A stretch of DNA of 13,859 nucleotides from a virus (taxonomy: Duplodnaviria > Heunggongvirae > Uroviricota > Caudoviricetes): positions 1-13,859 of IMG/VR virus record IMGVR_UViG_2690315992_000015; one strand, given 5' to 3'. Numbering within the stretch: position 1 is the first letter of the stretch; each line of letters opens with the position of its first letter. A program made the translations under genes and the position numbers. Below the pieces are notes generated by a model. That model did not search any database. It saw only the letters and a program-made list of their open reading frames with translations, and had not been told where the DNA came from. This document shows positions 587-11,239 of the stretch, piece by piece.

Positions 587-2587
587 TCATCCTTGTTGCT
601 GAAGCATGGGGAATAATTGTTCGCAAAGTAAAACACCGTTATTCATTGCTTCTACCCGTGCCTCGCTTTCTGTATTACGAAATTGTCCCAACACATGTGC
701 CAGCCGATAAAAACCGACCGCGGAGAGGTCATTCGCCAGCAACTCTGCCTGACTAATAGCGCTCTGTTCCTGATAGCGCCAGCCGTTATGGAGCAGTTGA
801 ATAAGTAACGCCTGGCAGCGCATCAGCAACTGATGAGCGGTAGACGGCACAGGCAAAACGCTGGCAGAAGGTAGCGGTGCCACAGGCGCAGTTTCTGCGT
901 CCAGCGCCCAGGCGCGGGTTTTTGTCATCATCACCCGTGGTTCCAGTGTCAATTGCCCATCAACAAAACTGACAAAGCCAGAAACCAGACTCACGGGGTC
1001 GTCTGTTTGTTGCAAAAGCGCCGCCATGCGTTCAACGGCAAAAGGAGAACAGGCAGATGCCGGAAGGGATAACGTCAGGAGATTATCTTCACCTTCGCCG
1101 CTGATTACCTGCGCATCCAGCGTCTGGCGGCTGCTATCCCAACCGAGCGAAATACACTCAGCGACCGGCAGAATAAATAAGTTATCGACCTGATTAAGAG
1201 GCCGTATGCAGGCGGGGGGACGCTGGCGTAAATATTCCCGCAAAGCCACAATGCCCGGCTGGCGTAACGGCGCGCTCAACATTTGCCAGGCATCAGGCGA
1301 CAGCGGCACAACGCTGCTTAAGCGGTTGCGGGTAGCTAACAGCAGCTCGCCATCGGCACTGCGTTTTGCTGCTTGTGAAACAATTTGCCCACCCGCCAGT
1401 GCGCCAGCCTGAAAACTAAACAGCCGACGCGTAGCTGCCGGTGAGTTTTCCTGTTCACTTCGCGGCCAACTGCGCGAAAGGTGCAAAATACTGCCGGTGT
1501 CGGGATCGGTAAACCAGATGCGTAAACCATAATGCTCAATATCCTGCCAGCAACGCATACCTAAAGACACCAGCCGCAGATGATCAAGCTTTGCTTCTCC
1601 GGCAATGCCAGAGCCAACGACCGTGCGCCACGGCACAGGAGGAACTTCACCAACACTGTCGCGCCGGGCCATCTCTTGTGCGCAATTTAATCGACTGTTT
1701 AATGCCGCAAGCTGACGTAAGCATTCTCCGGCATGATAGTGGCTGGCGCGAGTGTGGAAGGCATCAACGCTTGCCCGTAGCTGTCGTAGTGATTCACTCA
1801 CCCAGCGCCAGTTGCAGGCCTCTGCCGCCTGCAATGCGCGGTTGAATGCTGCCTCGTAGTGAATAAGCGGCTGGCTGATGCCGCCAAGCCATAATGCCTG
1901 GCTTAATTGCTGAACATATTGACGACACGTTTGGCCTTCTTCGCTGGCAAACGGATCGTCAGATGATGTGACGTGTTCGCTGCGCATCTGCCAGATTAAA
2001 TGGTTAAATTCTGCTTGCTGCGCTTTGGCCTCGACGAAGGCCTGCACAGCCAGTACGACATGTTCGCAAAGTGTGCCTTCAATACAATCACAACGGGCGA
2101 AACGAATACTGCTACGGGAATAAAAACGCACATCGCTCATCGGTAAGCGGGCAGAGGGAATTTCGCCCGGCGCACAGAACAACTCAATGGTGATGCCTTT
2201 AGCGACCAGCGCCTGCGCGCGTTTGCGGGTGGCATCGGGCAGGGTAGCCAGTTCTTCCAGCCAGATTGCCGGATCCCACTCTTCTTCTTTTTCCGTGGGC
2301 TGGACGGTGGCACAAAGTCGTTGATAACTTAACACCAGCATCACGCGATGACGGCACATGCCGCTGGCCCCGCAGCTGCACTGAGCCTCTTTCAGTGCCT
2401 GGCTGTTCGCCAGCTGGGTACGGACACCGTCACTGAAGGTGGCGATTAAAGCGCCGTTCTCATGGCTGATTTCCGGGACGTTGCCATTTTCCAGTTCCTT
2501 AAGACTGCGCTTAACAAAACCGGCATTGCTTAACGCCGTCAGTGCCTGCGGTGTCAGTTCTAATAATTCCGGACGTAGTGAATTCAT
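587..2587 (-). CDS. yehQ: SWIM zinc-finger domain protein (YehQ-like)
   Basis: Long minus-strand ORF with two CxC...CxH motifs (CSCGASGMCRH and CDCIEGTLCEH). The track ORF runs through the N gap as X residues; the real start is most likely the ATG at 2585-2587 (MNSLRPELL), 5 nt from the gap. Upstream partner genes would lie beyond the gap. Confidence 0.8.
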   Translation of the reverse strand: MNSLRPELLELTPQALTALSNAGFVKRSLKELENGNVPEISHENGALIATFSDGVRTQLANSQALKEAQCSCGASGMCRHRVMLVLSYQRLCATVQPTEKEEEWDPAIWLEELATLPDATRKRAQALVAKGITIELFCAPGEIPSARLPMSDVRFYSRSSIRFARCDCIEGTLCEHVVLAVQAFVEAKAQQAEFNHLIWQMRSEHVTSSDDPFASEEGQTCRQYVQQLSQALWLGGISQPLIHYEAAFNRALQAAEACNWRWVSESLRQLRASVDAFHTRASHYHAGECLRQLAALNSRLNCAQEMARRDSVGEVPPVPWRTVVGSGIAGEAKLDHLRLVSLGMRCWQDIEHYGLRIWFTDPDTGSILHLSRSWPRSEQENSPAATRRLFSFQAGALAGGQIVSQAAKRSADGELLLATRNRLSSVVPLSPDAWQMLSAPLRQPGIVALREYLRQRPPACIRPLNQVDNLFILPVAECISLGWDSSRQTLDAQVISGEGEDNLLTLSLPASACSPFAVERMAALLQQTDDPVSLVSGFVSFVDGQLTLEPRVMMTKTRAWALDAETAPVAPLPSASVLPVPSTAHQLLMRCQALLIQLLHNGWRYQEQSAISQAELLANDLSAVGFYRLAHVLGQFRNTESEARVEAMNNGVLLCEQLFPMLQQQG

Positions 2588-2592
2588 GACTG

Positions 2593-2606
2593 NNNNNNNN
2601 NNNNNN
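2593..2606. other. assembly gap (14 N)
   Basis: Literal run of n in the sequence; flanking sequence on the two sides belongs to different gene contexts. Confidence 0.97.
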
Positions 2607-2623
2607 ATCAAAAACAGGTTTCA

Positions 2624-3121
2624 TTATTTAGCCCTCACCAGAAAGTTAAATGCAATATTTCGCGGTCTGACAGCAACAAAATTCACACCATCACCCACAG
2701 AGTTACTGGTGAAATTAAATCGTGAAAATCCTGGCTGATTTCCGGCGATGCCATCATGAAAGTTAATTGCGTGTCCCGCACCTCCGCCTATATTCCCGGC
2801 AAACTGAGAAAAGTTTGTAGCTTCCTGCCAGCTTAATAATTCGCGACCACCATCTGCACCTCGCCCGTCATCCCAGATACGAATGAAATCACCGCGGGCT
2901 TCAGGTAATACCAGCGAAGGAAATACTTTCGCCAGCACAGGATAATCAGTGGCAGAGAATTTCGCGCCGTTGAACTTCAAAAACACCATACTGGACCAGC
3001 TGTCGATTACAGTATTTGGCATTGCAGCGGACGGCCAGAAGAACGGAACGCCAATAGCTGGAGCACCTTCTCCCAAACCAACGTTTAAGAAAATGCAGAG
3101 GTACCAGCTAACTGGCATCAT
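2624..3121 (-). CDS. phage tail-fibre variable C-terminal cassette (tail-collar-like domain), silent orientation of an invertible segment
   Basis: Gly/Asn-rich minus-strand ORF with the motif YPVLAKVFPSLVLPEARGDFIRIWDDGRG typical of the tail-collar region in Mu S / e14 StfP-type fibre tips. It begins next to the crossover site adjacent to the invertase gene and is closed upstream by a stop at 3131-3133, so it is not expressed as a full fibre in this orientation. The functional fusion point would be the crossover site, not the track's ATG. Confidence 0.55.
   Translation of the reverse strand: MMPVSWYLCIFLNVGLGEGAPAIGVPFFWPSAAMPNTVIDSWSSMVFLKFNGAKFSATDYPVLAKVFPSLVLPEARGDFIRIWDDGRGADGGRELLSWQEATNFSQFAGNIGGGAGHAINFHDGIAGNQPGFSRFNFTSNSVGDGVNFVAVRPRNIAFNFLVRAK
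3068..3093. other. hix/gix-like 26-bp invertase crossover site
   Basis: TTCTCCCAAACC-AA-CGTTTAAGAAAA: imperfect 12-bp inverted half-sites around a 2-bp core, fitting the recalled consensus TTnTCnnAAACC-nn-GGTTTnnGAnAA (compare hixL TTCTTGAAAACCAAGGTTTTTGATAA). It sits about 55 bp upstream of the invertase start, inside the 5' end of the fibre cassette. Confidence 0.55.
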
Positions 3122-3148
3122 CTCCGGTTTTTATTCAGGGGGATGATC

Positions 3149-3715
3149 ATGCTTATTGGCTATGTACGCGTGTCAACAAATGACCAGAACACCGATTTGC
3201 AACGTAATGCACTGAACTGCGCGGGATGTGAGCGGATTTTTGAGGACAAAATCAGTGGCACTAAGTCCGACAGACCGGGGCTGAAAAAACTACTCAGGAC
3301 ACTATCGGCAGGAGACACGCTGGTTGTCTGGAAGCTGGACAGGTTGGGGCGCAGTATGCGGCATCTTGTTACGCTGATAGAAGAGTTGCGCCAGCGTGGT
3401 GTGAATTTCAGAAGCCTGACTGACAGTATTGATACCAGTACCCCAATGGGCCGTTTCTTTTTTCATGTCATGGGTGCCCTGGCTGAAATGGAACGCGAAC
3501 TGATAGTTGAACGTACCAGGGCAGGGCTGGCTGCAGCTCGTGCCAAAGGCAGAGTAGGTGGACGCCGTCCTAAGTTGACCACCGAACAGTGGGCACAGAT
3601 TGGGCGTTTACTCGAGGCCGGAGAATCAATACAGCGTATTGCACTGATTTTTGATGTAGGCGTTTCTACCATTTATAGAAAATTTCCGGCAAATAAGATC
3701 AATGAATCCCCCTGA
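3149..3715 (+). CDS. pin: site-specific DNA invertase, serine recombinase (Pin/Gin/Cin/Hin family)
   Basis: N-terminus MLIGYVRVSTNDQNTDLQRNAL with the catalytic Ser in RVSTNDQ and a C-terminal HTH (VSTIYRKF); near-identical in pattern to e14 Pin as recalled. AGGGGG at 3137-3142 favours the ATG at 3149 over the track's 3143. Confidence 0.92.
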   Translation: MLIGYVRVSTNDQNTDLQRNALNCAGCERIFEDKISGTKSDRPGLKKLLRTLSAGDTLVVWKLDRLGRSMRHLVTLIEELRQRGVNFRSLTDSIDTSTPMGRFFFHVMGALAEMERELIVERTRAGLAAARAKGRVGGRRPKLTTEQWAQIGRLLEAGESIQRIALIFDVGVSTIYRKFPANKINESP

Positions 3716-3762
3716 ATCAGCATTATGTTGATTATCCCTGCAAGCAGACAAATACCGTTATT

Positions 3763-3780
3763 TTGTGTGAATAACGACAC
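3763..3780 (+). promoter_or_regulatory. candidate Ogr/Delta-dependent late promoter element (TGT-N12-ACA) for the FI operon
   Basis: TGTgtgaataacgacACA lies 78-95 bp upstream of the FI start codon. P2/P4 late promoters carry a TGT-N12-ACA dyad centred near -55 (established knowledge). A single motif occurrence; the transcription start is not verified. Confidence 0.45.
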
Positions 3781-3857
3781 AACTGCGCTTAGCTGTTTGT
3801 CAGGCACAATCACTTCAACATAGGGCGAAGCCTAATCCAATCAGGAGGTTCGCCACT

Positions 3858-5030
3858 ATGGCTCAGGATTACCACCACGGGGTGCGCGTTGTTGAAGTCA
3901 ACGAAGGCACCCGATCTATTACCACGGTGAGCACCGCCATCGTGGGTATGGTCTGCACGGGCGATGATGCCGATGCAAAAATGTTTCCTCTTAATAAACC
4001 CGTGCTGATCACTGATGTGCTGACTGCCAGCGGTAAAGCGGGTGAGTCAGGTACTCTGGCCCGTTCGCTGGATGCCATCGCTGACCAGGCAAAACCCGTG
4101 ACCATTGTTGTGCGTGTGCCGCAGGGTGAAACGGAAGACGAAACCACGACCAATATCATCGGCGCAGTGACTGCTGAAGGTAAAAAAACAGGTATGAAAG
4201 CCCTGTTATCTGCCCAGTCACAGCTCGGCGTTAAACCGCGCATTCTCGGCGTGCCAGGCCACGACACCAAGGCGGTAGCTACTGAGTTGCTGAGCGTGGC
4301 GCAACGCCTGCGTGGATTTGCTTACCTGTCAGCGTATGGCTGCAAGACAGTGCAGGAGGCGATCACTTACCGCGAAAACTTCAGCCAGCGCGAAGGGATG
4401 CTGATCTGGCCTGACTTTACTGGTTGGGACACGGTGCTGAATGCCGAAGCAACGGCATATGCCACCGCCCGTGCGCTTGGTCTGCGCGCCAAAATTGACG
4501 AGCAGACCGGATGGCACAAAAGCCTGTCCAACGTGGGCGTGAACGGTGTCACCGGAATTTCTGCAGATGTGTTCTGGGATCTGCAGGACCCGGCAACCGA
4601 TGCAGGTCTGCTGAACCAGAACGACGTCACCACGCTTGTGCGTAAAGACGGTTTCCGCTTCTGGGGTTCCCGCTGCCTGAGTGATGACCCGCTCTTTGCC
4701 TTCGAAAACTACACCCGCACGGCGCAGGTGCTGATGGACACGATGGCAGAAGCACACATGTGGGCGGTGGATAAACCGCTTAACCCGTCGCTGGCCCGCG
4801 ACATTATCGAAGGTATCCGCGCCAAAATGCGCAGCCTGGTCAGTCAGGGCTATCTCATTGGTGGTGATTGCTGGCTGGATGAGTCGGTGAACGACAAAGA
4901 CACGCTGAAAGCCGGAAAACTCACCATCGACTACGACTACACGCCAGTGCCGCCACTTGAAAACCTGATGCTGCGTCAGCGCATCACCGATCAGTACCTG
5001 GTGAATTTCGCCAGCCAGGTCAGCGCGTAA
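3858..5030 (+). CDS. FI: contractile tail sheath protein (P2 gpFI-like)
   Basis: 390-aa ORF with a strong AGGAGG RBS, in the conserved position at the head of the FI-FII-E-T-U-D operon; length and sequence are typical of the P2 sheath protein. Confidence 0.9.
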
Positions 5031-5039
5031 GGGGACAAC

Positions 5040-5555
5040 ATGGCATTACCACGCAAATTAAAACACCTGAACCTGTTTAACGACGGGAACAACTGGCAGG
5101 GGATCGTTGAGTCGCTGACGCTGCCGAAATTTACCCGCAAATATGAGAAGTATCGCGGCGGCGGAATGCCGGGTGCGGTGGATGTGGATCTGGGGCTTGA
5201 TGACAGTGCGCTGGACACAGAATTTTCCATTGGTGGTACTGAATTGCTGCTGTTTAAACAGATGGGTAAAGCCACGGTGGATGGCATCCAGCTGCGCTTT
5301 ACCGGCTCTATTCAGCGTGACGATACCGGGGAAGTGCAGGCCGTGGAGCTTGTCGTGCGTGGACGTCACAAAGAAGTGGATTCCGGCGAGTGGAAGACGG
5401 GCGAAAGCAACACCACCAAAGTGACCAGTACCAACAGCTACGCGAAGCTGACCATCAATGGTGAGGTGCTCTATGAAGTGGACCTTATCAACATGGTGGA
5501 AATTGTGGACGGTGTGGACCTGATGGAAGCGCACCGCAACGCCCTCGGCCTCTGA
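5040..5555 (+). CDS. FII: tail tube protein (P2 gpFII-like)
   Basis: 171-aa ORF 9 bp downstream of FI with an AGGGGA RBS; size and position match the P2 tube protein. Confidence 0.9.
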   Translation: MALPRKLKHLNLFNDGNNWQGIVESLTLPKFTRKYEKYRGGGMPGAVDVDLGLDDSALDTEFSIGGTELLLFKQMGKATVDGIQLRFTGSIQRDDTGEVQAVELVVRGRHKEVDSGEWKTGESNTTKVTSTNSYAKLTINGEVLYEVDLINMVEIVDGVDLMEAHRNALGL

Positions 5556-5912: not shown

Positions 5913-6046
5913 CGGTTGACGATCTGGTGGCAGATATCGCCACCATTTTTCACTGGCCGCCATCCGTTACTGACGTTATGCCGCTGACCGAAGTGCTGGA
6001 ATGGCGGTATAAAGCGATTCAGAGAAGCGGGGCCAACGATGAGTGA
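5610..6046 (+). CDS. E': E+E' fusion made by programmed -1 frameshift at T_TTT_TTG (5867-5873)
   Basis: The canonical P2 slippery heptamer is in the zero frame at 5867-5873. The -1 frame is open from 5873 to a TGA at 6044-6046 (VEEVGACRFTDSLTVDDLVADIATIFHWPPSVTDVMPLTEVLEWRYKAIQRSGANDE) and overlaps the T start, as in P2. Confidence 0.65.
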
Positions 6047-7553
6047 TAACAACCTGCGTCTGCAGGTCATTCTTAATGCGGTTGACAAGCTCACCCGTCC
6101 ATTTCGATCTGCGCAGGCCAGTTCAAGAGAACTGGCTGCTGCTGTCAAAAAATCCCGCGATGCAATAAAGCAGCTTGATCAGGCCGGGAGCAGTCTGGAC
6201 AGCTTCCGAAAGCTGCAGGCAGAAAATCAGAAATTAGGCGACAGGCTGAACTATGCCCGCCAGCGTGCAAATTTGCTCAGTCAGGAACTGGGAGCGATGG
6301 GGCCGCCTTCGCAACGTCAGGTTGTTGCTCTGGGCCGTCAACGGCTGGCTGTTCAGCGCCTGGAAGAACGCCAGAAAAAGCTGCAGCAGCAGACGGCGCT
6401 TGTGCGTGCTGAACTGTACCGGGCGGGAATTTCTGCGAAAGACGATGCGGGAGCAACTGCCCGTTTAGCCCGTGAAACATCACGTTATAACCAGGAACTT
6501 TCGAAACAGGAGGCGCGGCTGAAGCGACTGGGGGAAGCTCAGCGCAGGATGAATGCAGCGCGTGCCAGTTATGCCCGTTCGCTGGAGGTGCGTGATCGTA
6601 TTGCAGGTGCCGGAGCCACCACCACGGCTGCAGGGCTGGCAATGGGTGCGCCAGTGATGGCGGCAGTAAAAAGCTATACCAGCATGGAAGATGCCATGAA
6701 AGGTGTGGCAAAGCAGGTCAATGGTCTGCGTGACGATAATGGCAACCGCACTGCACGTTTTTATGAAATGCAGGATGCCATCAAGGCTGCCAGCGAACAG
6801 TTGCCGATGGAAAACGGTGCGGTGGACTTCGCTGCACTGGTTGAAGGTGGTGCGCGCATGAACGTCGCAAACCCTGACGACAGCTGGGAAGATCAGAAAC
6901 GTGACCTGCTGGCCTTCGCCAGTACGGCAGCAAAGGCGGCAACAGCCTTTGAGCTGCCAGCGGATGAACTGTCAGAAAGTCTGGGGAAAATCGCCCAGCT
7001 CTACAAAATCCCCACCCGCAATATTGAACAGCTCGGTGATGCGCTGAACTATCTGGATGATAACGCCATGTCGAAAGGGGCAGACATCATTGATGTGATG
7101 CAACGTCTGGGCGGTGTGGCTGACCGTCTGGATTATCGTAAAGCGGCGGCGCTGGGTTCCACCTTCCTGACACTGGGCGCTGCGCCAGAGGTTGCAGCCA
7201 GTGCAGCAAACGCGATGGTGCGTGAATTGTCCATTGCCACCATGCAAAGCAAGAGTTTCTTTGAAGGGATGAATCTGCTGAAACTCAATCCTGAAGTGAT
7301 TGAAAAGCAGATGACGAAGGATGCGATGGGAACCATCCAGCGCGTGCTGGAGAAGGTAAACGCGCTGCCGCAGGACAAGCGCCTGTCTGCCATGACTATG
7401 TTGTTTGGTAAAGAGTTTGGCGATGACGCGGCGAAACTGGCAAACAACCTGCCGGAACTGCAGCGTCAGTTAAAACTGACAGCGGGCAATGATGCGCTCG
7501 GCTCCATGCAGAAAGAATCCGACATTAACAAGGATTCACTTTCTGCGCAGTGA
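6039..7553 (+). CDS. T: tail tape measure protein, N-terminal 504 codons (P2 gpT-like), ends at an in-frame TGA
   Basis: Coiled-coil-rich, Ala/Gln/Arg/Leu-rich N-terminus typical of tape measure proteins, in the correct operon position. The TGA at 7551-7553 is followed in the same frame by the next ORF. Confidence 0.8.
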   Translation: MSDNNLRLQVILNAVDKLTRPFRSAQASSRELAAAVKKSRDAIKQLDQAGSSLDSFRKLQAENQKLGDRLNYARQRANLLSQELGAMGPPSQRQVVALGRQRLAVQRLEERQKKLQQQTALVRAELYRAGISAKDDAGATARLARETSRYNQELSKQEARLKRLGEAQRRMNAARASYARSLEVRDRIAGAGATTTAAGLAMGAPVMAAVKSYTSMEDAMKGVAKQVNGLRDDNGNRTARFYEMQDAIKAASEQLPMENGAVDFAALVEGGARMNVANPDDSWEDQKRDLLAFASTAAKAATAFELPADELSESLGKIAQLYKIPTRNIEQLGDALNYLDDNAMSKGADIIDVMQRLGGVADRLDYRKAAALGSTFLTLGAAPEVAASAANAMVRELSIATMQSKSFFEGMNLLKLNPEVIEKQMTKDAMGTIQRVLEKVNALPQDKRLSAMTMLFGKEFGDDAAKLANNLPELQRQLKLTAGNDALGSMQKESDINKDSLSAQ

Positions 7554-9116
7554 TTGCTGGTCAAAACCGGAGCGCAGAACACCTTCAGCAGCCTGGGCGA
7601 AACGCTGCGCCAGCCGCTGATGGATATTCTGTACACGGTGAAAAGCGTCACGGGGGCGTTGCGTCGCTGGGTGGAAGCTAACCCGGAACTGACAGGCACA
7701 CTGATGAAAGCATCGGCTGTTGTGGCTGCGGTTACCGTCGGCCTCGGCACCTTAGCGGTGGCGCTGGCTGCAGTGCTGGGGCCGCTGGCAGTGATCCGTC
7801 TGGGATTCTCTGTGTTGGGTATCAAAACGTTATCTTCCGTTACGGCAGCAGTAACTCGAACCAGCAGCGCGTTGTCCTGGCTGGCTGGCGCACCACTGGC
7901 ACTGCTGCGACGCGGGCTTGCTTCATCGGGCAACGCCGCAGGTTTACTTACTGCGCCGTTGTCGTCTTTGCGCCGCACGGCATCACTGACGGGAAATGTC
8001 CTGAAAACTGTAGCAGGTGCGCCGGTTGCACTTTTGCGGTCTGGATTATCCGGTTTACGTGCGGTTGCTGTGATGTTTATGAATCCACTGGCAGCACTAC
8101 GCGGCGGGCTGGCTGCCGCAGGCACGGTGCTGCGAGTACTGGCATCTGGTCCACTGGCGATGTTGCGCGTTGCCCTGTATGCCGTATCTGGTCTGTTAGG
8201 TGCTCTGCTCAGTCCGATAGGTCTTGTGGTTACTGCACTGGCGGGTGTGGCACTGGTTGTCTGGAAATACTGGCAACCCATCACCGCATTTCTCGGTGGC
8301 GTGGTGGAAGGATTCAAAGCGGCGGCAGGTCCCATCAGTGCAGCGTTCGAACCGCTTAAGCCTGTGTTCCAGTGGATTGGTGACAAAGTGCAGGCGCTGT
8401 GGGGCTGGTTTACTGATCTGCTGACGCCCGTTAAGTCGACTTCTGCCGAACTGCAGAGCGCAGCGGCAATGGGGCGACGATTCGGGGAGGCACTGGCGGA
8501 AGGGCTGAATATGGTTATGCATCCGCTGGACTCCCTGAAATCTGGCGTTTCCTGGTTGCTGGATAAACTCGGCATTGTCAGTAAAGAGGCTGCAAAGGCG
8601 AAACTGCCGGAAAGCGTGACGCGTCAGCAACCTGCGACGGTGAATGCAGACGGTAAAGTGATGATGCCATCGGGTGGTTTTCCGTCATGGGGATATGGCT
8701 TTGCGGGGATGTATGACAGCGGCGGCTATATCCCGCGCGGGCAGTTTGGCATCGTCGGTGAAAACGGGCCGGAAATTGTTAACGGCCCGGCAAATGTGAC
8801 CAGCCGGAGAAATACAGCTGCACTGGCTGCCGTTGTTGCCGGAATGATGGGCGTTGCTGCCGCGCCTGCAGAGCTTCCACCGTTGCACCCTTTGGCACTT
8901 CCCGCGAAAGGCGGCGAAGCGATGGTGAGTCGTGCAGCCACTGTGCCGCCCGTTCAACGGATTGAGGCACCGATGCAGATCATCATTCAGACGCAGCCAG
9001 GACAAAGTGCGCAGGATATTGCGCGGGAGGTGGCCCGCCAGCTTGATGAACGTGAACGTAGGCTGAAGGCAAAAGCCAGGAGTAACTACAGCGATCAGGG
9101 GGGATACGACGCATGA
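7554..9116 (+). CDS. T: tail tape measure protein, C-terminal 520 codons (same frame as 6039-7553)
   Basis: Same reading frame as the upstream segment (6039 and 7554 are both multiples of 3). Contains the hydrophobic repeat region and C-terminal part of a tape measure protein; the stop overlaps the U start (ATGA). The two segments together give about 1025 codons, a plausible size for a P2-family tape measure protein. Confidence 0.75.
   Translation: MLVKTGAQNTFSSLGETLRQPLMDILYTVKSVTGALRRWVEANPELTGTLMKASAVVAAVTVGLGTLAVALAAVLGPLAVIRLGFSVLGIKTLSSVTAAVTRTSSALSWLAGAPLALLRRGLASSGNAAGLLTAPLSSLRRTASLTGNVLKTVAGAPVALLRSGLSGLRAVAVMFMNPLAALRGGLAAAGTVLRVLASGPLAMLRVALYAVSGLLGALLSPIGLVVTALAGVALVVWKYWQPITAFLGGVVEGFKAAAGPISAAFEPLKPVFQWIGDKVQALWGWFTDLLTPVKSTSAELQSAAAMGRRFGEALAEGLNMVMHPLDSLKSGVSWLLDKLGIVSKEAAKAKLPESVTRQQPATVNADGKVMMPSGGFPSWGYGFAGMYDSGGYIPRGQFGIVGENGPEIVNGPANVTSRRNTAALAAVVAGMMGVAAAPAELPPLHPLALPAKGGEAMVSRAATVPPVQRIEAPMQIIIQTQPGQSAQDIAREVARQLDERERRLKAKARSNYSDQGGYDA
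7779..8177 (+). repeat. degenerate tandem repeats (about 66 bp / 22 aa period) inside the tape measure gene
   Basis: Recurring peptide motif GPLAVIRLGF / APLALLRRGL / APLSSLRRTA / APVALLRSGL / NPLAALRGGL / GPLAMLRVAL at roughly 22-aa spacing; the corresponding DNA motif CCACTGGC...CTGCG..G recurs. Confidence 0.5.
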
Positions 9117-9598
9117 TGATGGTGCTGGGATTGTACGTGTTTATGCTGCGCACCGTGCCGTATCAGGAGCTGCAGTATCAACGCAGCTGGCGACATGCGG
9201 CAAACAGCCGGGTAAACCGACGTCCGTCCACGCAGTTTCTGGGACCGGACAACGACATGCTGACGCTTTCCGGTGTTCTTATGCCGGAGATAACAGGTGG
9301 CAGGCTGTCGTTGCTGGCACTGGAGCAGATGGCAGAACAGGGGAAAGCATGGCCCCTGATTGAAGGCAGCGGCACGATTTATGGCATGTATGTGATTGAG
9401 GGACTGAATCAGACTAAAACGGAGTTTTTCCGCGACGGTATGCCGCGCCGGATTGAGTTCACCCTGTCGCTCAAACGGGTGGATGAATCCCTGTCCGATA
9501 TGTTCGGTGATCTCAGTGCGCAACTGAATAATCTGCAGGAAACGGCAACGTCTGCCTTAAGCGATATCAGTAAAACGGTGGGAGGGCTGCTGTCGTGA
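9113..9598 (+). CDS. U: tail protein (P2 gpU-like)
   Basis: 161-aa ORF with a GGGGGGA RBS; start overlaps the T stop. Motifs QFLGPDNDMLTLSGVL and WPLIEGSGTIYGMYVIEGL match the recalled P2 gpU pattern. Confidence 0.88.
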   Translation: MMMVLGLYVFMLRTVPYQELQYQRSWRHAANSRVNRRPSTQFLGPDNDMLTLSGVLMPEITGGRLSLLALEQMAEQGKAWPLIEGSGTIYGMYVIEGLNQTKTEFFRDGMPRRIEFTLSLKRVDESLSDMFGDLSAQLNNLQETATSALSDISKTVGGLLS

Positions 9599-10695
9599 AT
9601 TTCAGCTCTGAACTGCTTAACAAAAGCAACAAAACTCCGGCATTCAGCATCAGTATTGAGGGTAGGGATATCACCACTGTGCTGGATAACCGCCTGATGA
9701 GTCTGACTCTGACGGACAATCGGGGCTTTGAAGCAGACCAGCTTGATCTGGAGCTGGACGATGCCGACGGGAAAATCGTGCTGCCGCGCCGTGGTGCGGT
9801 CATTACGCTGGCGCTGGGCTGGAAGGGGCAGCCGCTTTTCCCGAAAGGGGCATTCACGGTGGACGAGATTGAACACACTGGCGCACCGGACCGCCTGACT
9901 ATCCGGGCGCGAAGTGCTGATTTTCGGGAAACGCTGAATACCCGCCGTGAAAAATCGTGGCACAAGACCACCATTGGGGAAGTGGTGAAGGAGATAGCCG
10001 CGCGGCACAAGCTGAAGATGGTACTGGGTAAAGACCTGTCGGATAAGCTCGTGGAGCATATAGACCAGACTAATGAGAGTGACGGTAGTTTTCTGATGCG
10101 GCTGGCGCGACAGTACGGTGCCATCGCGTCGGTGAAAAATGGCAATCTGTTATTCATCCGGCAGGGGCAGGGCAAAAGCGCCACTGGTAAACCACTGCCA
10201 GTGATCACTATCACACGCAAGGACGGCGACAGTCACCGCTTTACCCTGGCAGATCGCGGAGCCTACACGGGCGTAATTGCCAGCTGGTTGCATACCCGCG
10301 AACCTGCGAAGAAAGAAAGCACCACGGTGAAGCGTAAGCGCAGAACTAAGAAGCAGAAGAAAGAGCCGGAAGCGAAGCAGGGCGATTACCTGGTGGGTAC
10401 GGATGAAAACGTGCTGGTACTTAATCGCACTTATGCCAACCGGAGCAACGCTGAACGGGCAGCGAAAATGCAGTGGGAACGCCTGCAACGCGGCGTTGCG
10501 TCATTCTCGCTACAACTGGCGGAAGGGCGGGCAGATCTTTACACGGAAATGCCAGTGAAAGTTAGTGGCTTTAAACAACCGATAGATGATGCGGAATGGA
10601 CCATTACGACTCTGACGCATACCGTCAGCCCCGATAACGGTTTTACAACCAGTCTGGAGCTTGAAGTGAGGATTGATGATTTCGAAATGGAATGA
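9595..10695 (+). CDS. D: tail protein D (P2 gpD-like)
   Basis: 366-aa ORF with a GTG start overlapping the U stop (GTGA); last gene of the tail operon before ogr, as in P2. Confidence 0.88.
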   Translation: MNFSSELLNKSNKTPAFSISIEGRDITTVLDNRLMSLTLTDNRGFEADQLDLELDDADGKIVLPRRGAVITLALGWKGQPLFPKGAFTVDEIEHTGAPDRLTIRARSADFRETLNTRREKSWHKTTIGEVVKEIAARHKLKMVLGKDLSDKLVEHIDQTNESDGSFLMRLARQYGAIASVKNGNLLFIRQGQGKSATGKPLPVITITRKDGDSHRFTLADRGAYTGVIASWLHTREPAKKESTTVKRKRRTKKQKKEPEAKQGDYLVGTDENVLVLNRTYANRSNAERAAKMQWERLQRGVASFSLQLAEGRADLYTEMPVKVSGFKQPIDDAEWTITTLTHTVSPDNGFTTSLELEVRIDDFEME

Positions 10696-11004: not shown

Positions 11005-11084
11005 CGCTGCCGCCATTTTGTCGCCATCGTTAAAAAACAGTGCTTCTAACGTCATGATTTTAAACGGCATAAATTTCAGGCAAC

Positions 11085-11127
11085 AAAAAACCCATCAACC
11101 TTGAACCGAAATGGCGGGGTTGATGGG
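11085..11127 (-). terminator. rho-independent terminator of ybjL
   Basis: Stem CCCATCAACC / GGTTGATGGG (10 bp), followed on the minus strand by a TTTTTT run (plus-strand AAAAAA at 11085-11090); lies 110-150 bp downstream of the ybjL stop. Confidence 0.55.
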
Positions 11128-11239
11128 CTCCACAAAATGGGGACATCAAAGAAAAGCAGTGGCACTAATTAAGACTGATGCCCTGCGGAAAAGTTCTGCG
11201 GTTGTGCAAAAAAATTTCATTTTCAGGGCAACTTCAGTT

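Follow-up and report, generated by a model that had tools for sequence, protein, structure and literature searches.

Right end of a tail-fiber inversion switch, apparently still flipping, in a P2-like prophage of Escherichia coli

Positions 2607–3715 of the window, the whole 13,859-nt stretch of DNA analyzed here, very probably form the right end of a two-state, invertase-driven tail-fiber switch in a P2-like (Peduoviridae) prophage that lies beside rybB and ybjL in Escherichia coli. Judged from sequence comparisons, the switch is real and apparently still flipping: in the available assemblies both orientations are found, across genomes as well as between siblings that carry the same nonsense allele of the tape-measure gene. 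The window itself holds one of the two crossover sites and one of the two fiber cassettes, in a single orientation, and its contig reads through the site.

The window is composed of two pieces of unequal origin. On the minus strand, positions 1–2592 carry yehR (DUF1307) and yehQ (SWIM zinc finger), which are followed by a run of 14 Ns (2593–2606). From 2607 onward, we find a prophage tail module made up of a headless fiber cassette, the invertase, FI, FII, E, the tape measure, U, D, and ogr; 3' of the prophage are the sRNA gene rybB (11082–11160, minus strand) and then ybjL, ybjM, and grxA. The whole window, Ns included, is 100% identical to part of CYDX01000001.1 (assembly GCA_001285585.2). 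Because the genes across the N run are yehQ and yehR, core genes that K-12 carries some 1.3 Mb from ybjL (yehQ at 2.21 Mb, ybjL at 0.889 Mb), the N run marks the place where scaffolding joined a yehR/yehQ contig (1–2592) to a prophage contig (2607 onward). It joins unrelated contigs and is no small gap inside the switch, nor should it suggest that yehQ and the prophage are physically linked. Of 5426 complete E. coli genomes, 5423 contain the yehR/yehQ flank, and its neighbor gene is always yehP.

A reading made from the sequence alone had placed the second crossover site, the constant part of the fiber gene, and the alternative cassette beyond this gap, and had taken the switch as the probable reason why the assembly broke here. 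All three elements do exist in relatives and siblings, as described below, but what lies across the gap in the window is yehQ and yehR. It is true that invertible segments break short-read assemblies and that contig ends in sibling assemblies coincide with the crossover sites, as one would expect if inversion heterogeneity had broken the assembly and the missing half of the switch lay directly across the N run. Nevertheless, yehQ and yehR stand beside yehP in essentially all E. coli, and the break falls about 470 bp inside the invertible segment, where the chaperone gene begins; both facts make it highly improbable that the gap is the switch itself. The contig ends at 2607, 18 nt into this gene and off any crossover site. 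Inversion is therefore no obvious cause of this particular break, and this part of the sequence-only reading did not hold up. A multi-copy repeat is a possible alternative cause: the chaperone gene of the silent cassette finds up to 7 matches per genome, and its 3' half is ~ 95% identical to e14 tfaE. A boundary of the e14 tfaE repeat at 2607 itself was considered and rejected, since high similarity sets in only some 330 nt deeper in the gene. The genome may also contain a second P2-like prophage.

The gene order FI, FII, E/E', T, U, D, ogr, established with Pfam and by collinearity with annotated relatives and with P2, is that of a P2-like (Peduoviridae) tail module, as had been recognized from the sequence alone. 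The tail sheath gene FI (3858–5030, plus strand; Pfam Phage_sheath_1 and related domains) heads the P2-type F operon, and its position puts the invertase into the place that fun(Z) takes in P2, directly 5' of FI; the earlier assignment of the invertase to the Z/fun slot is therefore correct. In another relative (L014), the slot upstream of FI is occupied by an acyltransferase gene, and this slot is a variable cargo position.

The gene for the serine DNA invertase (Pin/Gin/Cin/Hin group) lies on the plus strand at 3149–3715 and encodes 188 aa when the RefSeq-style start is used; the open reading frame spans 3143–3715, and an alternative ATG at 3143 would yield 190 aa. The protein matches the Pfam domains Resolvase (PF00239, E = 2.9e-53) and HTH_7 (PF02796, E = 6.4e-16, residues 140–183) as well as the DNA invertase family phrog_125 (E = 1.4e-100), it aligns over its full length to the Mu Gin structures 3UJ3 (E = 1.4e-91) and 4M6F (E ~ 1e-91), and its C-terminal part matches the Hin DNA-binding domain 1HCR (E = 2.5e-8). 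In the alignment to Gin 4M6F, the catalytic Ser9 is kept within the RVSTNDQ motif, and the KLDRLGRS motif is identical. At the protein level, the invertase shares 86% identity with e14 PinE, 78.6% with P1 Cin, and 74.1% with D108 Gin, and it is 100% identical to RefSeq WP_000905030.1, a protein present in many genomes. Domains, size, and identity all class it as a Din-family DNA invertase (Hin/Gin/Cin/Pin; small serine recombinases), in agreement with the Pin/Gin type proposed earlier.

By homology to the annotation of P1 cin (gene nt 19–90), a putative recombinational (Fis-dependent) enhancer would lie inside the 5' end of the invertase gene, at 3167–3238. DNA identity over this stretch is 78% with P1 and 88% with e14, compared with 67% and 87%, respectively, over the following 90 nt; coding constraint alone could account for this conservation. 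A crude scan for Fis motifs in the 5' ends of four invertase genes gave no clear signal either way. Upstream of the invertase, a consensus scan of the plus strand found no sigma-70-like promoter, and terminator-like matches were at chance level only.

The right end of the invertible segment is marked by a 26-bp crossover site at 3068–3093 (TTCTCCCAAACCAACGTTTAAGAAAA), consisting of the inner half-site TTCTCCCAAACC (3068–3079), the core AA (3080–3081), and the outer half-site CGTTTAAGAAAA (3082–3093). The two half-sites, of 12 bp each and imperfectly symmetric, flank the 2-bp core as in sites of the pix/gix/cix type, and their pattern is shared with the cix sites annotated in P1 and with the D108 gix inverted repeats. 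The site has no second copy in the window, even with 3 mismatches tolerated (0 expected, from shuffles), and 25 of its 26 bases are identical to the right site of the e14 P segment, so its original description as hix/gix-like is upheld. Among phage relatives that carry other cassettes, homology starts at about 3065–3070, the inner edge of the site. Neither a pattern search with 3 mismatches nor a general inverted-repeat search revealed an inverted partner in the window, because the contig ends inside the invertible segment.

The silent tail-fiber C-terminal cassette extends over 2624–3121 on the minus strand. Pfam gave no match to it at default thresholds (a Collar domain, at E = 0.01, was below the cut-off), and its identity was therefore taken from PHROGs and from direct comparison with StfE: it matches the tail fiber family phrog_3100 (E = 1.7e-53) over profile positions 209–381 of 382, i.e. 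the C-terminal end only, and is 42% identical to e14 StfE, which confirms the fiber C-terminus seen in the sequence-only reading. That reading had named StfP, StfE, and the Mu S variable region as sequences to compare it with. The likeness to StfE stands, but no similarity to D108 S' was found, so the resemblance to Mu is one of architecture and does not reach the cassette sequence.

The inner half-site supplies the ...NVGLGE codons, where the match to fiber sequence begins, and the exchangeable fiber tip runs from the GLGE codons (3079–3068) to the stop at 2624–2626. The 12–13 codons upstream of the crossover (3082–3121) are outside the invertible segment and contain no fiber sequence; RefSeq labels the equivalent cassette 'phage tail protein, incomplete, missing N-terminus'. 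An in-frame TAA stop at 3131–3133 (minus strand; 'tta' on the plus strand), visible by direct reading and from the ORF limits, makes the cassette unreadable from further upstream in this orientation. Both the stop and the location of the site inside the 5' end of a minus-strand fiber cassette had been read correctly at the outset. The StfE-like cassette is thus the silent one in the orientation captured by the window. Its stop overlaps the ATG of a tail-fiber assembly (chaperone) gene in the sequence TAATG, and the first 18 nt of this gene (MKPVFD; 2607–2624, minus strand) are present before the contig end cuts it. The full chaperone gene is 594 nt long in the complete genome L001 (8424–9017, annotated 'tail fiber assembly protein'), and in siblings its product is a 197-aa protein with Caudo_TAP_N and Caudo_TAP domains.

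The complete switch can be seen in relatives. The complete genome NZ_CP035819.1 (L001) is 99.3% identical to the window over 2608–3860 and 98.4% identical over the whole prophage part. Its annotation gives, in order, the fiber gene H (6620–8029, plus strand), tfa (8033–8452, plus strand), tfa' (8424–9017, minus strand), a headless cassette (9017–9478, minus strand), and the invertase (9542–10108, plus strand), followed by the sheath gene FI. The partner site, TTCTCACATACC-TT-GGTTTGGGAGAA, is located inside H at 7656–7681 and pairs with a window-type site at 9461–9486; it is the sole site-like inverted repeat. The inner half-site and core form a perfect 14-bp inverted repeat between the two sites, whereas the outer half-sites differ, and the cores TT and AA are the same dinucleotide once the sites are set in inverted orientation. 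L009, a sibling assembly from the window's lineage, also has the partner site (5284–5309). In relatives and siblings, the distance to the partner site in H is about 1.7–1.8 kb (1708–1777 nt between the repeat arms); an inverted copy within a few kb, on which the sequence-only reading had staked its proposal, does therefore exist. When the segment of L001 is inverted in silico from core to core, the constant part of H joins the window's cassette in frame (...LLTYL-GLGE-GAPAIGVPFFW...), giving an open fiber of 501 aa in place of one of 470 aa. L001, L009, and L010 possess both cassette-plus-chaperone pairs, whereas the window has one cassette and the start of its chaperone; in the window's lineage, the pairs are a StfE-like tip with a 197-aa Tfa and a gp53-like tip with a 142-aa Tfa. 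The gene order of L001, together with that of e14, bears out the Mu G-segment/e14 P-segment architecture put forward earlier.

Based on these parts and on the analogy with Gin, Hin, and Cin, we propose the following mechanism. The invertase gene lies outside the segment and keeps a fixed orientation, and its product would bind the two inverted 26-bp sites, one at 3068–3093 and the other in H, ~ 1.75 kb upstream in the real chromosome. Enhancer-assisted cutting at the central dinucleotides, strand rotation, and rejoining would then invert the segment, which consists of two convergent pairs, each a fiber C-terminus with the assembly chaperone that belongs to it. The pair turned toward the constant 5' part of H is fused to it in frame at the shared ...L-G-L-G-E codons and would be expressed with the late operon; the other pair is left promoterless and headless, adjoining the invertase. 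The parts, their homologies, the in-frame fusion, the existence of both states, and the precise inversion between siblings are seen in the sequences themselves. The requirement for Fis and an enhancer and the chemistry of strand exchange are established for Gin, Hin, and Cin; for the present switch, we infer both, along with the rate of flipping and its consequences for host range.

Several comparisons between genomes indicate that the segment does flip. In at least 16 complete E. coli genomes, a single alignment without interruption covers the flipped junction over its full length, and one of them, NZ_CP145714.1, combines this junction with an identical invertase protein and a gp53-like cassette parked beside it. 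The window's own lineage was defined by an exact match to a 504-aa truncated tape-measure product, which retrieved 18 contigs. Two siblings are the most informative: L009 (GCA_001284985.1) contains the complete switch in the flipped state, and L010 (GCA_001284025.1) contains the window's state. L009 and the reverse complement of L010 show 2 mismatches over ~ 1,747 nt, and the identity runs from the core TT to the core AA, with different outer half-sites beyond. Moreover, a single base distinguishes the two inner half-sites (GGTTTGGGAGAA vs GGTTTTGGAGAA), and this SNP swaps sides between L009 and L010, changing place with the segment as expected for exchange at the core. In sequence, the two siblings differ by a precise core-to-core inversion of ~ 1.75 kb, which points to recent flipping.

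For both orientations within a single culture, the assemblies provide indirect indications. The L010 contig begins exactly at the left core TT (TTGGTTTTGGAGAAGG...), and a Logan contig (ERR4783774) begins at window position 3075, one base past the SNP that separates the inner half-sites; suggestively, these starts are where the assembly graph of a culture with mixed orientations would branch. In L013 and L015, contig ends lie elsewhere, off the crossover sites, so the coincidences are suggestive but fall short of proof. A scaffolded sibling, L011 (GCA_001284165.2), contains the cassette twice, once beside the invertase and once joined to the constant part of H, with Ns separating the contigs in question, so that both junctions are present in one assembly. 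A second related prophage, instead of a mixed culture, could explain this double cassette.

The prophage carrying the switch is probably defective. A TGG to TGA change at 7551–7553 creates a nonsense codon in the tape-measure gene and leads to the truncated 504-aa product, and in a sibling the fiber gene H has a 1-nt deletion causing a frameshift. Both mutations, along with the single orientation in the window and a contig that runs straight through the site, would also fit a segment that no longer flips, in which case the orientations found in databases would come from old events or from recombination between prophages. We regard such a frozen state as improbable. The invertase is intact and 100% identical to a protein found in many genomes, siblings sharing the rare nonsense allele differ by a precise inversion with 2 mismatches in ~ 1.75 kb, contigs end exactly on the sites, and one assembly contains both junctions. 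In addition, the defective prophage e14 still inverts (PMC4272514). The preferred reading is thus that, as with e14, the switch probably operates within a prophage that is defective. A host-range function for released phage in this lineage is doubtful, given the nonsense codon in the tape-measure gene and the deletion in H of the sibling.

Judged by the sequences of site, invertase, cassette, and chaperone, the closest known system is the P segment of e14 (PinE; stfP-tfaP/tfaE-stfE) in K-12. Gene order is the same, with the invertase outside the segment, the inner half-sites are identical to those of the prophage (GGTTTGGGAGAA) whereas the outer half-sites differ, and the size is similar (1797 nt between the repeat arms vs 1708–1777 nt here). 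Both copies reside in defective prophages; nevertheless, e14 is a lambdoid remnant with StfP as its second cassette, whereas the present switch is part of a P2-type myovirus tail module, between G and FI, and has a gp53-like second cassette.

Within P2-type phages, Escherichia phage 500465-1 (Peduoviridae, Wadgaonvirus) has an invertase that is 98.9% identical in protein sequence and the same slot order (H, tfa, tfa', cassette, invertase, FI). Escherichia phage Cartapus, Klebsiella phage KP12, and others show 96–98% DNA identity over the stretch from the site through the invertase to FI. The cassettes of these invertase-bearing P2-like phages are different ones, and past the crossover site their DNA ceases to be homologous to the window. 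Goldberg et al. 2014 used sequencing read patterns to detect phase-variable inversion in the P2-like prophages of EPEC E2348/69 (PMC4272514). P2 itself has the same tail module and the same variable slot upstream of FI (H, G, fun(Z), FI), but it lacks an invertase, has a single fiber tip, and holds fun(Z) in the slot.

The G segment of Mu and D108 (Gin) and the C segment of P1 (Cin) follow the same logic, with a constant S and invertible Sv-U/U'-Sv' pairs. Their sites, too, are 26 bp long around a 2-bp core, and their invertase genes contain the enhancer for which a counterpart is postulated here. They differ in belonging to other phage families and in the larger size of the segments (~ 3.0 kb between annotated repeats in D108, 4.2 kb in P1), and in P1 the invertase is on the opposite side of the segment relative to S. 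The type of switch is therefore already known, including its P2-type version, its parts are annotated in RefSeq, and the present copy shows no departure from the known kind.

The combination of a defective prophage with an intact invertase and intact sites might alternatively reflect a domesticated switch with a role at the level of the host, in which the invertase would act in trans on segments of the e14 type or a flipped fusion would block phage adsorption. Action in trans is made plausible by the match of 25 of 26 site bases to e14 and by the 86% identity of the invertase to PinE, and the cassette is StfE-like; PinQ and the e14 StfE2 have been reported to block adsorption of other phages (PMC12529663). 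On the other hand, the nonsense and frameshift mutations may be merely recent decay, and the frameshift in H would bar a full-length fusion protein in the sibling concerned. Drawn by analogy, such a host-level role seems hardly likely, and we retain the reading of a phage tail-fiber switch.

For annotation, the headless 'phage tail protein' ORF and the adjoining 'recombinase family protein' should be treated as one phase-variable fiber locus. Draft assemblies of strains with this prophage will show differences in orientation and breaks at the crossover sites without any real gain or loss of genes, and for typing and comparative genomics, isolates that differ by this inversion alone are genetically not distinct. 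It is mildly notable that the switch appears active in a prophage whose tape-measure gene carries a nonsense codon.

The tape-measure gene of the prophage tail module (window positions 6039-9116) would encode a 1025-aa protein, but it is broken by a nonsense change at 7551-7553, where TGG has become TGA, leaving ORFs of 504 and 520 aa. We found the exact truncated product on 18 contigs from several samples (NCBI, Logan and ENA), and because it recurs in this way the TGA allele is a real lineage marker rather than a read error. The prophage has probably lost the ability to build tails.

The window isolate's own fibre gene H lies outside the window. In L009, a sibling assembly (GCA_001284985.1) with the same tape-measure allele, H carries a 1-nt deletion at about position 4706 (GGATGAC to GGA-GAC) relative to both L001, a complete-genome relative (NZ_CP035819.1), and L002, another comparison locus. 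This deletion frameshifts the constant part of H into ORFs of 158 and 341 aa; either the lineage may have acquired a further inactivating mutation, its second, or the draft assembly may be in error here.

A run of 14 Ns (window 2593-2606) separates a yehR/yehQ flank on the left (1-2592) from the prophage on the right. In K-12, yehR/yehQ map at 2.21 Mb and ybjL, a neighbour of the prophage, at 0.889 Mb, and yehP would be expected exactly at the point where the left contig stops. The N run is a scaffold joint between non-adjacent loci or, less likely, marks a real rearrangement; the same yehR/yehQ-N-prophage join is found unchanged in GCA_001285585.2. A second N joint occurs in the scaffolded sibling GCA_001284165.2 (CYDZ01000025.1, about 8351-8361), where the start of D abuts an inverted contig in which the constant part of H is fused to the tail-fibre cassette seen in the window. 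Version-2 assemblies of this kind are scaffolds, and their joints should not be taken for gene order.

At the other end, a full-length RybB sRNA gene (window 11082-11160, minus strand; Rfam, 105 bits) has its 3' end, at 11082, exactly where homology to the prophage-free K-12 locus starts. Sequence comparison thereby places the P2-like prophage between rcdA and rybB, integrated immediately downstream of the rybB terminator or overlapping it.

L014 (Logan SRR30543823), a relative sharing the truncated tape-measure allele, is without the invertase switch and has instead a 343-aa Acyl_transf_3 gene (6575-7606, minus strand) between the chaperone gene and FI. This gene and fun(Z), which P2 carries at this position, mark the G-FI junction as a cargo hotspot. 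In L001, in a region outside the window, a gene for a 610-aa 'P-loop NTPase fold protein' (2295-4127, minus strand) is inserted in the orientation opposite to its neighbours, with the tail-completion genes on one side and the baseplate gene V on the other; its insertion point is likely another cargo or defence slot of this type of P2-like prophage.
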